Shown: piece by piece, positions 8,753-42,785 of the stretch
Position numbering within the stretch: the first letter of the stretch is position 1
Layout of the letters: the number at the start of each line of letters is the position of its first letter
Virus record (IMG/VR): IMGVR_UViG_3300037515_000188
Location: 1 to 64,000 of that record
Source: a virus
Strand: one strand, 5' to 3'
Length of the DNA stretch: 64,000 nt
Made by a program: the position numbers and the translations under genes
Notes under the pieces: model-generated
Databases searched by the model: none
What the model was told of the DNA's origin: nothing
Seen by the model: the letters and a program-made list of their open reading frames with translations, nothing else

Positions 8753-8961
8753 TTTTATATTATAACATACTAAGTAATTGATGTAAAGGACGATTTTTCA
8801 GTTTTCAAATGGAAAACCCTAAACGATTTTTCCATTTTGGTTTTCAAAACCCTAATTGTTTTTAATTAATTTATGTAATCTTTAATTCATGAATTGTTAA
8901 TGATTAAAAACTCGTTAACAGAGTATTGACAAATTTATTTAATTATGTAATACTATATTAT

Positions 8962-9195
8962 ATGAAAGATAGTAATAAATTTCCATTATACTTATATGGA
9001 CCTTGTGACGAGGTAAATATAGTTCCTGTAGTGGGAGATACTATTGCGATTATGATATATTCCACCAGAGTATCGTTTAAGATCGTGACTGATGTTATAA
9101 CCGATGAATATGGATATATTACTATATGGGTAGCGGGTGATAAACAATATCGTTTATCTGAATGTTTTATTATACGATATGAGGAAATTAATTAA
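8962..9195 (+). CDS. hypothetical protein (probably leaderless)
   Basis: TTGACA...TACTAT immediately before ATG 8962; followed by a terminator. Confidence 0.7.
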   Translation: MKDSNKFPLYLYGPCDEVNIVPVVGDTIAIMIYSTRVSFKIVTDVITDEYGYITIWVAGDKQYRLSECFIIRYEEIN

Positions 9196-9230
9196 TTTAT
9201 TTGATTTCATATAAGGACATGGTTAAATTT

Positions 9231-9255
9231 TAGGACAGGGAAGTCCTTTTTTTTA
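9231..9255 (+). terminator. intrinsic terminator
   Basis: aggac-aggga-agtcct hairpin followed by a T run. Confidence 0.6.
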
Positions 9256-9760
9256 TTATAGTTAATTTATAAATTCTTTATATTCTATATTTTATATTGT
9301 AGTTTATATTATCATTAATCATTCCATTGGATATTATTAATGTTAATAATGATTCCATTGGAAATTCATTTATAATTTTTTAGTGGTGTGGTGTTATACT
9401 GTACTACAACACCAGTGTTGTTTTTTGCCACATATGGTGGTAAAAATACCACGGAATTTTAGTTCTGTTGTTTTTTTGCAACAGCTATGACAAAATAACT
9501 CCGGAACAACTATTCTGTTGTTTATTTGCAACATGTGTTGTAGTTATACCACACTTGTCTCGTTTTTGCAACTCCTTGTTGTTTATTTACAACAAATTTA
9601 TTTAAGATAAGCGAACCCCTTCCAGCGGGACGCTAGAATGATGATGATACTTACAGTATACCATAATGTAAAGATTATTTCAATGGGTTGACAAGATTGA
9701 TTTATTATGGTATTATATAGATAATGGGAGATATGAGTTTTCTAAAAGTTAAAAGCACAG

Positions 9761-9847
9761 ATTTCCCCCTGCTCGTGGCCTTCTCTCCGATGCTTCGCAG
9801 TCCTGTTGTTTATTGTTGGGAGCGGACTACTTCTTCTTCGACTTCAA
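9761..9847 (-). ncRNA. conserved 87-nt element, copy 1 (putative sRNA)
   Basis: Near-identical at 20500-20586 and 42574-42660. A - strand TTGCAT..TGgTATAAT promoter lies directly upstream; GTAGTCC/GGACTGC stem. Confidence 0.6.
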
Positions 9848-9944
9848 AACCATTATACCATAATAAGCAAAAAAATGCAAGGTGGATTTTTACTTTTATT
9901 TGTGATATGATAGGGGTTCTCAAAGTTGAAAGGAATTGATTGAA

Positions 9945-10109
9945 ATGAATGAAAACAAAGATACCTTAGATCATTTGGAAATGTGGCTTGCTTGTGAACC
10001 AGCGGATGAATATTGTACTGTAAGTTGGATGCGACAGATCGCTGCTGATTGGCGTGAAGAACGTTATCAATTTGAAGCATTTGAAAAACTAGTTGATAAA
10101 AATTGGTGA
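9945..10109 (+). CDS. hypothetical protein (54 aa), weakly similar to the N-terminus of 49164..49478
   Basis: MNENKDTLDHLEMWLACEPADEY...ADWREER vs DALDRLIEWINQEPEDK...RDWTKDR. Confidence 0.55.
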   Translation: MNENKDTLDHLEMWLACEPADEYCTVSWMRQIAADWREERYQFEAFEKLVDKNW

Positions 10110-13598: not shown

Positions 13599-13733
13599 AA
13601 AATATACCGGGAGTTTCTCGGGATTTTAAGCCTGCGGAGAACGGAGTTCACTGAATGAAAATTTGGTTAGCTGTTCAATGAAACAGGAATTTAACGGAAA
13701 ATATAAATTATTTTTGTAAGTTTAAAAGAACGG
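13599..13733 (+). mobile_element. TnpB omega-RNA-like right end / IS607-type miniature element (no tnpB)
   Basis: ACCG(T/G)GAGTT..GGATTTTAAGCCTGCGGAG...ATGAAACAGGAA...AAGTTTAAAAGAACGG resembles the tnpB 3' tail (T-V-S-S-T..A-C-G-E..M-K-Q-E) and an IS607-like GG end. Confidence 0.7.
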
Positions 13734-13789
13734 TGTAATGAATCGGATCATATAATCCCTAAACAGATGAAGTTATAGGAAATATATTT

Positions 13790-18904: not shown

Positions 18905-18908
18905 TATA

Positions 18909-18938
18909 AAGGGGATGGTAGTTTATCCATCCCCTTTT
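18909..18938 (+). terminator. intrinsic terminator
   Basis: aaggggatgg-tagtttat-ccatcccctt followed by T residues. Confidence 0.8.
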
Positions 18939-19710: not shown

Positions 19711-20060
19711 AAACTCTAAACGATTTTTCAGTTTTCGTTTTCAAAACCCTAATTGTTTTACCCCATATATTTAATACTATAAGAATTGTATTTTAAACCA
19801 TTTTATATCACTTAACAACATTGTTTAGACGTGTTTAAACATGTATTACATTTAATCAATATCCTAATTTGAAATTGATTTAAAACTATAAATTGTATTT
19901 CAAACTATTTAGTCTTACATTATATTACATTACATATGAATTATTTAAAGTTATTAATGACAATTATAAATTGAATTCTATCTTAAATAAGATAGAATTC
20001 ATTGTAATCAAATAATGTATATCAAATAATGTATATCAAATACTATGAACTGCACCATGA

Positions 20061-20226
20061 CCGTTCTTTTAAACTTACGAAAATAATTTATATTTTCCGT
20101 TAAATTCCTGTTTCAATGAACGGCTAACCAAATTTTCATTCGGTGAACTCCGTTCTCCACAGGCTTAAAATTCCGTGGAACTCACGGTATATTTCTCATG
20201 TTATATTAACATATTCTATTTGTCAA
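20061..20226 (-). mobile_element. omega-RNA-like miniature element with its own sigma70 promoter
   Basis: Reverse complement highly similar to 13599-13733; TTGACA at 20226-20221 with -10 just upstream of the scaffold. Confidence 0.7.
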
Positions 20227-20499
20227 GAATAAATTTTATCCATTAATATTTCCATTGGAAATTCATTGATAATTTTTATAGCGTATTGGTGTTATACTAT
20301 ACTATAACACTAGTGTTATACTGTCCTACAACACTACTGTTGTTTTTCCACAACATATCCATCATGTTGTTTTTATACAACATGGACCTGTTATCATTCA
20401 CAGCATAACATAAAAATTATTTTAATATAAGTATTGACTTTATATGGAAAATATGATATAATTATAGTAACAAGATTTTTCTAAAAATGAAAAACCTGA

Positions 20500-20586
20500 G
20501 TTTCCCTCTGCTCATGGCCTTCTCTCCGATACTTCGCAGTCCTGTTGTTTATTGTTGGGAGCGGACTACTTCTTCTTCGACTTCAA
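20500..20586 (-). ncRNA. conserved 87-nt element, copy 2
   Basis: Near-identical to 9761-9847; - strand TTGACA promoter upstream. Confidence 0.6.
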
Positions 20587-20704
20587 GTATATTATCTCAT
20601 ATTATAGGATAAATGTCAATCTTAAAAATTTATTTAATTGATAATATCTCCTTGCAAATCAACGCTACTTATAGTATACTAATTTTTCTTTAATTCATTT
20701 AGAG

Positions 20705-21457
20705 TTGTTTACTGTGAAACTGCTTAATGTAGATAAGAATTCCAAAACAGTTAAAGGTCAAAAGAAAGGATATCTTACCGGAATTCTATATCTTTCTCCG
20801 GCTACCTTATCCGGGATAAATATTTGTCCTATGACAAAACTTGCAGGATGTGAAAAACTTTGTTTGAATTATACCGGACATTCTGCCATGTCTAAAAATA
20901 ATTCTACATTTGCTGCACTTGATGGTACTTTAATACCTGATAATAGACAGCAACATGGTAGATTAAATCGTACACAATTTTTTCATTCTGATCGTGAAGG
21001 ATTTTTAAATCAATTAAAGAATGAAATTAATAAATTAATCCACAAAGGTAAACGTGATAATCTTATTCCAGTAATTAGATTAAATGGTACATCTGATATT
21101 AGATGGGAGAATATCAAATTTAATGATGGGGAAACCCTATTTGAAAAATTTCCAAATATTACATTTTATGATTATACCAAATTGAATAATCGTAAAAATA
21201 TTCCGGATAATTATTATCTGTTATGGTCATATTCAGAGGCTAGTAAGAAATATGCTGCTATGCGGCCTGAAAATATGAATTGGGTAGTAGTATTTAAAGA
21301 TAGTAATTTTCCTGAAACATTTTTAGGTAGAAAAGTTATTGATGGGGATGAAAATGATTTACGTTTTTTAGACCCTGATAATATCGTGGTAGGAGTAAAA
21401 GCTAAAGGCCCTGCCAAAAAAGATACTAGTGGATTTGTTATTAGACTTGAAAATTAG
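20705..21457 (+). CDS. GP88-family phage protein (radical-SAM-like fold)
   Basis: CP...GC...CL, IRLNGTSDIRWE, FYDYTK, DGDE.DLRFLD, G.KAKG.AKKD.SGFV. Confidence 0.8.
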   Translation: MFTVKLLNVDKNSKTVKGQKKGYLTGILYLSPATLSGINICPMTKLAGCEKLCLNYTGHSAMSKNNSTFAALDGTLIPDNRQQHGRLNRTQFFHSDREGFLNQLKNEINKLIHKGKRDNLIPVIRLNGTSDIRWENIKFNDGETLFEKFPNITFYDYTKLNNRKNIPDNYYLLWSYSEASKKYAAMRPENMNWVVVFKDSNFPETFLGRKVIDGDENDLRFLDPDNIVVGVKAKGPAKKDTSGFVIRLEN

Positions 21458-27462: not shown

Positions 27463-28752
27463 ATGAATAATGAAACCCGCCCCATTCTAATTGGTAAAGG
27501 TGAATCTCTTATTCATCTATTGCCCAATTATGGAAATCGCCATGGTTTAATTACTGGTGCTACTGGTACCGGTAAAACTATTACTTTGCAAGTATTAGCT
27601 GAAGGATTTTCTAATATTGGGGTTCCGGTATTTTTAGCTGATGCCAAAGGTGATTTGGCCGGATTATCATATTCTGGAAATTCACATCCTAAAATAAATG
27701 CGCGAGTACAAAAAATTGGTATTAATAATTTTAAACATTCCGCGTATCCAGTAATATTTTGGGATGTATTCGGAACTAATGGACATCCTGTAAGAACTAC
27801 TATATTTTCACTAGGACCATTGCTACTTTCCACCTTGTTAGAATTGAATGATACGCAAGAGGGAATTTTAAACATTGCTTTTCGTGTAGCTGATGAACAT
27901 GGATTGTTGTTAATTGATATGGACGATTTACGTGCATTATTAAGATTTGTTGCTGAAAATGCGGTTATATTTTCGCAGCAATATGGTAACATAAATGTAT
28001 CTTCTGTAGCATCCATTCAAAGACGGTTGTTAGTGTTAGATCAGCAAGGAGCGGAAGAATTTTTTGGGGAACCTGCAATTAAATTATCAGATATGATTCG
28101 ATGTGATTCTTCGGGTCGTGGTATGATTAATATATTAGTTGCGGATAAATTGATACATAAGCCTAAACTCTATTCCACTTTTTTGTTATGGATGTTGTCG
28201 GAATTATGGGAAACCTTACCAGAAATTGGTGATCCTGATAAACCAATTATGGTATTCTTTTTTGATGAAGCGCATTTATTGTTTAATCATGCACCGAGAA
28301 TATTATTGGATAAGATTGAACAAATAGTGAGGTTGATTCGATCCAAAGGGGTTGGAGTATATTTTGTAACACAAAATCCGTTAGACGTACCAGACGAAGT
28401 ATTAGGACAATTGAGCAATCGTTTTCAGCATGCCTTACGTGCATATACTCCGAGAGACCAAAAAGCAGTACGGGCAGCAGCAACTACTTTCCGCACTAAT
28501 CCTAATATGGATACGGAACGTGCTATACTTGAATTAAGCGTAGGGGAAGCATTAGTTTCAACATTACAAAATGATGGTATTCCAAATATAGTGGATAGAT
28601 GTTTGATATGTCCTCCTACATCGCGTATCGGACCCATTACACTAGAGGAACGCAATAAAGTGTTGTCATGTAGTCCAATTGAAAAACATTATGATACTAC
28701 TATTAATAGGACTTCCGCTACTGAAATTTTATTGCAAAGAAATAAATCTTGA
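27463..28752 (+). CDS. DUF853 / HerA-like ATPase (YjgR-like)
   Basis: NRHGLITGATGTGKT, FFFDEAHLLF, VRLIRSKGVGVYFVTQNP. Confidence 0.92.
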   Translation: MNNETRPILIGKGESLIHLLPNYGNRHGLITGATGTGKTITLQVLAEGFSNIGVPVFLADAKGDLAGLSYSGNSHPKINARVQKIGINNFKHSAYPVIFWDVFGTNGHPVRTTIFSLGPLLLSTLLELNDTQEGILNIAFRVADEHGLLLIDMDDLRALLRFVAENAVIFSQQYGNINVSSVASIQRRLLVLDQQGAEEFFGEPAIKLSDMIRCDSSGRGMINILVADKLIHKPKLYSTFLLWMLSELWETLPEIGDPDKPIMVFFFDEAHLLFNHAPRILLDKIEQIVRLIRSKGVGVYFVTQNPLDVPDEVLGQLSNRFQHALRAYTPRDQKAVRAAATTFRTNPNMDTERAILELSVGEALVSTLQNDGIPNIVDRCLICPPTSRIGPITLEERNKVLSCSPIEKHYDTTINRTSATEILLQRNKS

Positions 28753-41716: not shown

Positions 41717-41817
41717 TCACTAAATAATAGTCGAAAATCCAAACGATTTTTCAGTTTTCGTTTTCAAAACCCTAATTGTTTTTTGACTTTTTGTGCTTAA
41801 TAGGATAAGATAATATC

Positions 41818-42138
41818 ATGCCAGCAAAGTTGTTAACAAAAGAATATCGTTACTTATCTGAATTTGATGATGAGACGATATCATTTCTTGCCAGTGTCTT
41901 ATCATACAATAATATTACTGGGTCTGGTCTAACATATAAATTAATGGTGTGTCTCGAATATTTGAATAGGTTGTTTAATCATAATGTATATGATAATGAT
42001 ACTGGAGATAACATATTAAAAACCTTTCATGAACGATATGGTGTCACAATGGAAACATTTGTTATTCTCGGGTTAGATGATGATATTAATAAAGTGTTAA
42101 ATAGGGGAAACCTATTTTCTTCGGTTTATAAAGGTTGA
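41818..42138 (+). CDS. hypothetical protein (leaderless)
   Basis: TTGACT-17-TAAGAT-6-ATG. Confidence 0.7.
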   Translation: MPAKLLTKEYRYLSEFDDETISFLASVLSYNNITGSGLTYKLMVCLEYLNRLFNHNVYDNDTGDNILKTFHERYGVTMETFVILGLDDDINKVLNRGNLFSSVYKG

Positions 42139-42573
42139 ATAATTTAAGTATATTTTATCTAAATTATAATTTAAGAACATGATGTAAGTTTATGTCAATG
42201 ATGAAAATGTATTAATGATCTATCAATCTTATTCTTTATTATTTGCAATTTAAAACTCCATTATAATTCCATTGGGAATTTTTAATGATTTTTTAGCCTA
42301 CCCCGCCCGATAATATTCCATTTGATTATATTGAAAAAGTCTAATATAACCAAAAGTTATATAACATAATTTTAACATAATTTTAACATAATTTTAACAT
42401 AATCAAAAGTTATAATCTCCCATAGCAAGCCATAGGCATAATTTACGCATTATGCGCACCGTCTTATATAATATCATAAAACAATATAAAATGTAAGGGG
42501 TTGACAAGCTTGATTTATTATGGTATTATATAGATAATGGGAGATGTGAGTTTCCTAAAAGTTAAAAGTACGG

Positions 42574-42660
42574 ATTTCCGCCTGCTCATGGCCTTCTCTC
42601 CGATGCTTCGCAGTCCTATTGTTTATTGTTGGGAGCGGATTGCTTCTTCTTCGATTTCAA
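42574..42660 (-). ncRNA. conserved 87-nt element, copy 3
   Basis: Near-identical to 9761-9847. Confidence 0.6.
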
Positions 42661-42785
42661 AATCATTATATCATAATAAGTAAAAAAATACAAGGGTTTT
42701 ATTCATGATAACATTTTTCATTGACCATATAGGAAAAAAATGTTATACTTGGCTAATTAATGGAATTATTCAGGAAAATTAAATA

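Follow-up and report, generated by a model that had tools for sequence, protein, structure and literature searches.

What does a module of roughly 1 kb do in three separate places of the early region of a T4-like phage, and what has kept its parts alike? The question is raised by IMG/VR virus record IMGVR_UViG_3300037515_000188, a contig of 109,848 bp whose first 64 kb form the window, i.e. the whole stretch of 64,000 nucleotides (nt) considered here. A sequence-only reading of the window had described the same ordered parts at 8790-9880, 19718-20620 and 41741-42695 (copies 1, 2 and 3) and had suggested multiple replication origins, DNA-entry or organising sites, or a regulatory hub; every part was recovered at these positions. 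We tentatively interpret the modules as paralogous early control regions, each of which would combine a predicted sense leader, an antisense countertranscript and operator-like sites.

Three copies of one module

From left to right, each module contains an A-box, a variable insert, a TTCCAnTGGAA box (B-box), TGTTG-N8-CAACA palindromes (in copies 1 and 2), a promoter cluster and an 87-nt element, and the three modules together account for 3.1% of the contig. A search for further copies, as proposed at the outset, returned exactly three in the contig, all on the + strand, and nhmmer detected no fourth. Copy 1 lies at the strand switch that had been noted previously, with minus-strand open reading frames (ORFs) up to 8752 followed by plus-strand ORFs. 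In a block-by-block table, identities between the copies amount to 93/93/100% for the A-box, 94/93/90% for the 87-nt core and 85/72/75% for the B-box. Flanks and the DNA between the blocks are 43-61% identical, compared with a baseline of 49.7 +/- 5.4% for random window pairs from the same contig.

A conserved unit between predicted facing promoters

The 87-nt element was confirmed in three copies with 90-94% identity, but the conserved, putatively transcribed unit is longer than had been described, comprising about 115 nt (9735-9848 in copy 1).

Copy 1, 9735-9848, no single strand: conserved unit with its core at 9760-9847; + strand 68% pyrimidine, 52% G+C
Copy 2, 20474-20587, no single strand: conserved unit with its core at 20500-20587
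Copy 3, 42548-42661, no single strand: conserved unit with its core at 42573-42660

In the alignment, conservation sets in shortly (a few nt) downstream of the predicted sense start; it stops 2-3 nt before the minus-strand GAAGTCGAAG and the predicted antisense start. The core has a G+C content of 48-52%, compared to 29% for the contig (about the 98th-99th percentile), and its + strand is 67-68% pyrimidine, which is above the 99th percentile of the contig. Such strand asymmetry is as expected for a functional, strand-specific nucleic-acid element.

Promoters were scored with a position weight matrix derived from 45 promoter-like sites outside the modules and applied to both strands (219,622 positions scanned). 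The consensus between 0 and 62 kb is TTGACA-17-TATAAT with an extended -10 box (ATTATGnTATAAT), and 17 of the approximately 110 top-scoring positions fall within the modules. Facing sigma-70 promoters bracket the conserved unit in all three copies, both of them within the top 0.03% of the contig, and a third promoter (sense) is located beyond the antisense one, ahead of the first gene. The predicted promoters and their ranks in the scan are as follows.

Copy 1, 9655-9716, both strands: back-to-back promoters, leftward at 9683-9655 (rank 9) and sense at 9688-9716 (TTGACA-17-TGgTATTAT, rank 22)
Copy 1, 9880-9852, - strand: antisense promoter, TTGCAT-17-TGgTATAAT, rank 28
Copy 1, 9883-9911, + strand: further sense promoter, rank 85; the gene that it precedes starts at 9945
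Copy 2, 20434-20462, + strand: sense promoter, TTGACT-17-TGaTATAAT, rank 5, without homology to its counterparts in copies 1 and 3
Copy 2, 20619-20591, - strand: antisense promoter, TTGACA-17-TGaGATAAT, rank 34
Copy 2, 20652-20680, + strand: further sense promoter, rank 86
Copy 3, 42468-42529, both strands: back-to-back promoters, leftward at 42496-42468 (rank 87) and sense at 42501-42529 (rank 66)
Copy 3, 42693-42665, - strand: antisense promoter, TTGTAT-17-TGaTATAAT, rank 32
Copy 3, 42721-42749, + strand: further sense promoter, rank 51

The sense promoters of copies 1 and 3 are 96% identical and their antisense promoters 81%. The facing promoters of copy 2 show 62/58% and 56/61% identity to those of copies 1 and 3, which corresponds to the baseline; they are non-homologous replacements whose positions have remained unchanged. 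The antisense -10 box is always found 7 nt before GAAGTCGAAG, copy 2 included, and at a site density of about 1.5 in 10,000 positions the probability of a chance promoter at that exact offset is below 0.001. Nothing argues more strongly than the replaced copy 2 promoters at a fixed offset that the selected feature would be transcription of the unit on both strands.

A G+C-rich hairpin with a U-rich tail (9610-9634, - strand; fold -10.7 kcal/mol, z score -1.0) is located just downstream of the leftward promoter 9683-9655 and possibly belongs to a leftward small RNA of about 50 nt that is restricted to copy 1.

Could the core itself encode a small early protein of 41-71 amino acids (aa), opposed by an antisense RNA in the manner of type I toxin-antitoxin systems? 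In all three copies the core is spanned by an ORF that starts with ATG and keeps the same frame (71, 41 and 48 aa), and in copies 1 and 3 its ATG lies 7 nt after the -10 box, matching the frequent leaderless layout of this phage. However, all three + frames are open across the core, an openness that is uninformative because A is scarce in the core; read by eye, the minus strand has stops in all frames. The 26 variable columns are spread 8/8/10 over the codon positions whichever frame is read, without third-position excess, the C-terminal ends and lengths vary between copies, and copy 2 lacks both a leaderless start and a Shine-Dalgarno sequence. As read by eye, the peptide is not hydrophobic, and no homologue of the 71-aa ORF was found among 5.8 billion proteins, so the small hydrophobic toxin under purifying selection that is typical of type I systems was not recognized. 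We consider the small-protein explanation very unlikely; the conserved unit has no detectable protein-coding signal.

Proposed sense/antisense control of early gene blocks

In the interpretation that we tentatively favour, the modules would be lineage-specific control regions that head three blocks of rightward early genes in a T4-like phage. The rightward transcript would carry the conserved unit as the 5' leader of the downstream genes, and the leftward promoter would produce a purine-rich countertranscript of roughly 100 nt. This RNA could act via pairing (masking, or RNase III cleavage of the duplex), polymerase collision, or both, and expression of the downstream early genes would be damped or timed as a result. 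Given the 90-94% identity of the three units, a countertranscript from any one of them could target the leaders of all three and thereby co-regulate the three blocks, and the upstream palindromes may add protein-mediated control. The third promoter (sense) in each module would let the downstream genes be transcribed without passing through the unit, which a regulatory role of the unit would predict. Of the roles suggested originally, a regulatory hub is supported at the sequence level by the promoter enrichment, the distinct palindromic sites and the position-fixed facing promoters, while no evidence supporting a DNA-entry or organising site was found.

Countertranscript systems such as ColE1 RNA I/RNA II, R1 CopA/CopT and IS10 RNA-OUT/RNA-IN, share with the modules an opposite-strand promoter inside a 5' leader. 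Predicted promoters place it about 115 nt inside the leader in all three copies, where it would yield a short RNA fully complementary to the leader. In contrast to these systems, the predicted antisense RNA of the module appears to lack compact kissing stem-loops and a strong terminator, no replication, transposase or toxin gene is located downstream, and the three copies are dispersed in a lytic-type phage. Among phage systems, the lambdoid OL-PL-nutL and OR-PR-nutR regions and HK022 putL/putR likewise repeat palindromic operators, a strong early promoter and a leader element at separate early operons. The palindromes of the module, however, lie 100-300 bp upstream of the promoter and not over it, its leader has neither boxA/boxB nor a put-like two-hairpin fold, and the facing promoter is absent from nut/put. 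The location of the unit fits an antitermination leader of the nut/put type, but no stable or conserved sense fold and no Rfam match were found. In the literature and libraries searched, no repeated sense/antisense leader unit was found described for T4-like phages.

Several observations weigh against sense/antisense control. The promoters and transcripts are all predictions, and many equally strong promoters occur inside gene blocks, such that the modules are not the sole operon heads. A stable fold was sought on both strands against shuffled controls and none was found (z -1.9 to +0.7): the sense strand has a consensus fold of -13 kcal/mol (z +0.4, +0.7 and 0.0), and the antisense strand one of -19 kcal/mol (z -0.9, -0.5 and 0.0), with a 7-bp stem around a 20-nt loop followed by a weak hairpin and an interrupted U tract. 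Only one of 25 pairs is compensatory, and three sequences yield no usable covariation. On the minus strand of all three copies a weak hairpin is followed by CUUUUAACUUUU near the sense start; this antisense terminator is weak (-5 to -11 kcal/mol) and its U tract is interrupted. Downstream of the modules lie genes that are unrelated to each other, have no assigned function and share no visible regulatory logic. Furthermore, no homologue of any box was identified in IMG/VR, JGI metagenomes, GTDB genomes, GenBank phages or plasmids, for which reason comparison across phages cannot separate selection from gene conversion.

The same block might also be a multicopy gene for a trans-acting small RNA, from either strand, directed against a host target or a host defence, in which case the role of the opposite promoter and the upstream sites would be limited to adjusting its level, and any link with the downstream genes would be coincidental. 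The unit forms a well-delimited conserved block and has strong predicted promoters of its own on both strands, and the phage carries stand-alone RNA devices, including gene-less omega-RNA scaffolds, one of which lies within copy 2. On the minus strand, a 5' (AAG)n run, a 3' hairpin and a U tract may resemble Hfq-type small RNAs. However, no complementary target of at least 13 nt was found within the contig (a single 12-mer only), neither strand has a strong terminator, and the unit has no Rfam match and no homologue elsewhere. We regard a small-RNA gene as unlikely.

Palindromes, tandem repeats and possible replication origins

Upstream of the promoter cluster, each module contains the B-box, followed by palindromes or tandem repeats.

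Copy 1, 9316-9385, + strand: B-boxes, TTCCAnTGGAA at 9322 and 9353, followed by a conserved AATTCATTTATAATTTTTTAG tail
Copy 1, 9389-9594, no single strand: palindrome cluster, GGTGTT-N12-AACACC at 9389-9414 and TGTTG-N8-CAACA at 9466, 9516 and 9577
Copy 2, 20244-20382, no single strand: B-box and palindromes, TTCCATTGG at 20250, GTGTT-N12-AACAC twice (20289-20334), TGTTG-N8-CAACA at 20338 and 20365
Copy 3, 42261-42403, no single strand: B-box region, TTCCATTGG at 42267 and a degenerate second box at 42313-42332

TTCCATTGG, which forms part of the palindrome TTCCAnTGGAA, occurs only four times in the 109,848-bp contig (9322, 9353, 20250 and 42267), always on the + strand and inside the modules; this confinement led us to reject the idea that it is a motif of middle or late promoters in general. 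Around the first B-box of copy 1 (9307-9350) there are AT-rich inverted repeats (TATTATCATTAATCAT / ATTATTAATGTTAATA) with a loose likeness to Fur-type boxes. The palindrome cluster is limited to copies 1 and 2, as originally observed: the modules hold five copies of TGTTG-N8-CAACA and none in copy 3, with one unrelated match elsewhere in the contig. The + strand carries the T-rich spacer in every palindrome of copies 1 and 2, and eight of the 11 genomic matches to the half-site TGTTGTTTWT fall in modules 1 and 2, one of them inside the conserved core. Spacing is irregular, with 50, 50 and 61 nt in copy 1 and 24-27 nt in copy 2. A perfect 3.8 x 11-nt tandem repeat at 42362-42403 takes the place of the TGTTG palindromes in copy 3. 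The palindromes are most simply read as putative, operator-like binding sites for dimeric DNA-binding proteins. Likenesses of the palindromes to LexA, parS, Fur, DnaA-box and Cas12a-repeat sequences failed on reading the sequence.

Repeats beside promoters, present in all three copies, also invite comparison with replication origins. In T4, origins consist of a promoter and downstream DNA that forms an R-loop; oriE combines an early promoter with a cluster of direct repeats, and oriE, oriF and oriG sit at transcriptional divergences (Kreuzer and Brister, 2010; PMC3016281). The modules could accordingly be three homologous transcription-primed origins, at which the purine-rich leftward RNA would hybridise to the pyrimidine-rich + strand and prime leading-strand synthesis, while an initiator would bind to the palindromes or tandem repeats, as has been suggested for oriE, or these would act like baculovirus hr regions. 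Like the T4 sites, the modules place an early promoter beside repeats at several locations, with one (copy 1) at a transcriptional divergence. The minus-strand RNA of the core would have a purine share of 67-68%, which exceeds the 99th percentile of the contig. No other type of hybrid is as stable as purine-rich RNA paired with pyrimidine-rich DNA.

Several results speak against origins of this kind. T4 origins share no common sequence motif and need an A+T-rich unwinding element (PMC3016281), whereas the modules conserve a G+C-rich block: downstream of each of the two facing promoters lie 87 nt with 48-52% G+C, and no A+T-rich unwinding element follows. The palindromes are irregularly spaced and missing from copy 3, GC skew tracks gene direction only, and 84 related loci have no module in front of the GP88 gene. 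Transcription-primed origins appear improbable. Origins of the oriF/oriG type use a MotA-dependent middle promoter; no match to MotA or AsiA was found in the contig, which is 47% complete, and control genomes were likewise without a match.

Baculovirus hr regions are combined enhancers and origins. If the modules were three enhancer-plus-origin sites of this type, the facing early promoters would fire across the purine/pyrimidine-asymmetric block and generate a primer R-loop, and the palindromes would recruit a phage or host protein, such that early transcription and the first rounds of replication would begin at one and the same repeated element. This combined role seems rather improbable.

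A-boxes, passengers and exchange between copies

At their left end, the modules begin with the 42-nt A-box, which marks the sharp left junction of a mosaic module. Its identity in copies 2 and 3 had been claimed before and was borne out over all 42 nt.

Copy 1, 8821-8862, + strand: A-box, with a partial tandem duplicate at 8790-8822
Copy 1, 8790-8862, + strand: A-box and duplicate, directly upstream of the leftward promoter 8787-8759
Copy 2, 19718-19759, + strand: A-box, identical to copy 3
Copy 3, 41741-41782, + strand: A-box adjoining the passenger promoter, a PeSL-like arrangement of stem-loop and early promoter

The A-box forms a nested imperfect hairpin with outer arms AAACGATT/AATTGTTT and inner arms GTTTT/AAAAC. 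Its fold is weak (-4 to -10 kcal/mol, z about -1.1), and a role as an intrinsic terminator was rejected given this weak hairpin and a terminator scan without a match at this position. A promoter follows 1 nt after the A-box in copy 3 and 63 nt after it in copy 1, with only a weak candidate in copy 2. The tandem A-box variant of copy 1 (8790-8862) has a B-box-like TTCCATTTTGG where copies 2 and 3 have TTCAGTTTTCG, and a further TTCCATTTG occurs at 42316 in copy 3. Moreover, a likeness exists between the A-box in its 3' part (TTCGTTTTCAAAACC) and the conserved core at its right end (TTCGACTTCAAAACC), as seen at 19733-19747 and 9834-9848 and also at 41756-41770 and 42647-42661. Of 15 positions, 13 agree in copy 1, 10 in copy 2 and 12 in copy 3 (rough chance estimate 0.02-0.05). 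Through this resemblance the module is loosely bracketed by a direct repeat.

Between A-box and B-box, each copy carries a different, self-contained insert with its own promoter. This agrees with the variable passenger of the sequence-only reading: small ORFs are present in copies 1 and 3, and an omega-RNA-like scaffold in copy 2.

Copy 1, 8926-9247, + strand: promoter 8926-8954, 77-aa ORF 8962-9195, hairpin and T-run terminator 9232-9247
Copy 2, 19972-20226, - strand: promoter 20226-20198, omega-RNA-like scaffold 20194-20060, 13-bp hairpin 20001-19972
Copy 3, 41783-42138, + strand: promoter 41783-41811 (rank 54), leaderless 106-aa ORF 41818-42138

The scaffold of copy 2 (20060-20194) is an inverted, gene-less copy of the omega-RNA-like scaffold at 13600-13734, to which it is 93% identical. 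Neither passenger ORF (77 aa in copy 1, 106 aa in copy 3) matched Pfam or PHROGs. Since the junctions are sharp on both sides, the interval between A-box and B-box is a preferred landing place for small autonomous genes.

Kinship between the copies differs from block to block: copies 2 and 3 share the same A-box sequence, copies 1 and 2 are nearest to each other in B-box and palindromes, and for the promoters the nearest pair is copies 1 and 3. This mosaic indicates that the module copies have exchanged segments by recombination.

Such exchange is also what would be expected of passive recombination cassettes, i.e. repeats comparable to the stem-loop and early-promoter motifs of T4-like phages known as PeSLs (promoter-early stem-loop cassettes), which would be kept similar by gene conversion in a strongly recombining T4-like genome and serve mainly as landing pads for new genes, with an 87-nt core that has no function of its own. 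PeSLs (Arbiol, 2010, PMC2839356; Comeau, 2014, PMC4122927) likewise combine a stem-loop with sigma-70-type early promoters and are repeated in variable early regions beside orphan genes, with signs of recombination between copies. The mosaic kinship, the different self-contained insert in each copy and the A-box hairpin of copy 3, which adjoins an early promoter and start codon as in PeSLs (PMC4122927), all fit this explanation. PeSLs are, however, short composite terminator/promoter motifs at many sites between ORFs (PMC4122927) that end in a Shine-Dalgarno sequence and start codon. The modules are about 1 kb long and limited to three A-boxes and three cores in 110 kb, with the core 100-200 nt from the next start codon. 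Their best-kept part is a promoter-less block (the 87-nt segment within the 115-nt unit) between facing promoters, accompanied by palindromic operator-like arrays, in contrast to PeSLs. In copy 2, moreover, conservation of the core falls to baseline exactly at both predicted starts, which would be unexpected for random conversion tracts. Neither a tyrosine integrase nor a serine resolvase, which an integron-like cassette system would call for, was found in the 110 kb of the incomplete contig, for which control genomes did give matches. Passive cassettes are not a likely explanation.

The phage and its relatives

The contig has a CheckV completeness of 47% and a G+C content of about 29%, and encodes rIIA, rIIB, both T4-type RNA ligases and a HerA-like ATPase. 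The best GenBank phage matches to rIIA are at most 38% identical, and rIIB has a single relative in IMG/VR (38% identical); the contig thus represents an uncultured, AT-rich T4-like phage without close sequenced relatives. As it covers about half a genome, further module copies and any partner protein may be located in the missing half. The first 62 kb form an early region that is dense in sigma-70-type promoters and contains few canonical terminators, as judged by a terminator scan. An 11-bp G+C-rich, bidirectional terminator-like hairpin directly after rIIB (18908-18937) is among the very few in the 64-kb early region. Furthermore, a 429-aa protein (27463-28752) matches Pfam HerA_C (E 1e-204, 681 bits) and is unusually close to the cellular family for a gene of a T4-like early region.

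Closer relatives are known only at the protein level, with 63-69% identity to GP88 in other assemblies, and GP88 relatives from a metagenome scan have at most 51% identity among the matches listed. The gene in question (20705-21457), which lies downstream of copy 2, belongs to the GP88 family (PF17338), a widespread family with 7,351 of 8,000 candidate proteins recognized at E <= 0.001. In 84 related phage loci the GP88 gene is packed against the upstream gene with a median gap of 51 nt and the module is absent, which suggests that the module is a lineage-specific insertion.

Searches for the module itself gave a consistent picture. Profiles of core, A-box and B-box (nhmmer) detected no extra copies, either in the whole contig or in 124 loci surrounding GP88 homologues. 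When the modules were compared by blastn with phage and plasmid records, generic promoter-like similarity was all that emerged. Exact 20-27-mers of core and A-box had no true match in IMG/VR, JGI metagenomes or GTDB genomes, in scans that detect near-identical sequence only; three exact-word matches were rejected as chance occurrences inside coding DNA with dissimilar flanks. Rfam searches of the whole window at gathering threshold and of copies 1 and 2 at E <= 10 yielded nothing relevant.

Implications for early gene control

Control of early genes after initiation is poorly understood in T4-like phages outside T4. If sense/antisense control by the conserved unit is true, one short RNA pair would link three otherwise independent early gene blocks, and the module would constitute a compact, portable control element composed of sigma-70 promoters, an antisense brake and operator sites. 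In addition, the sharp junctions of the A-box/B-box interval bear on how cargo is gained in the variable regions of large phages.

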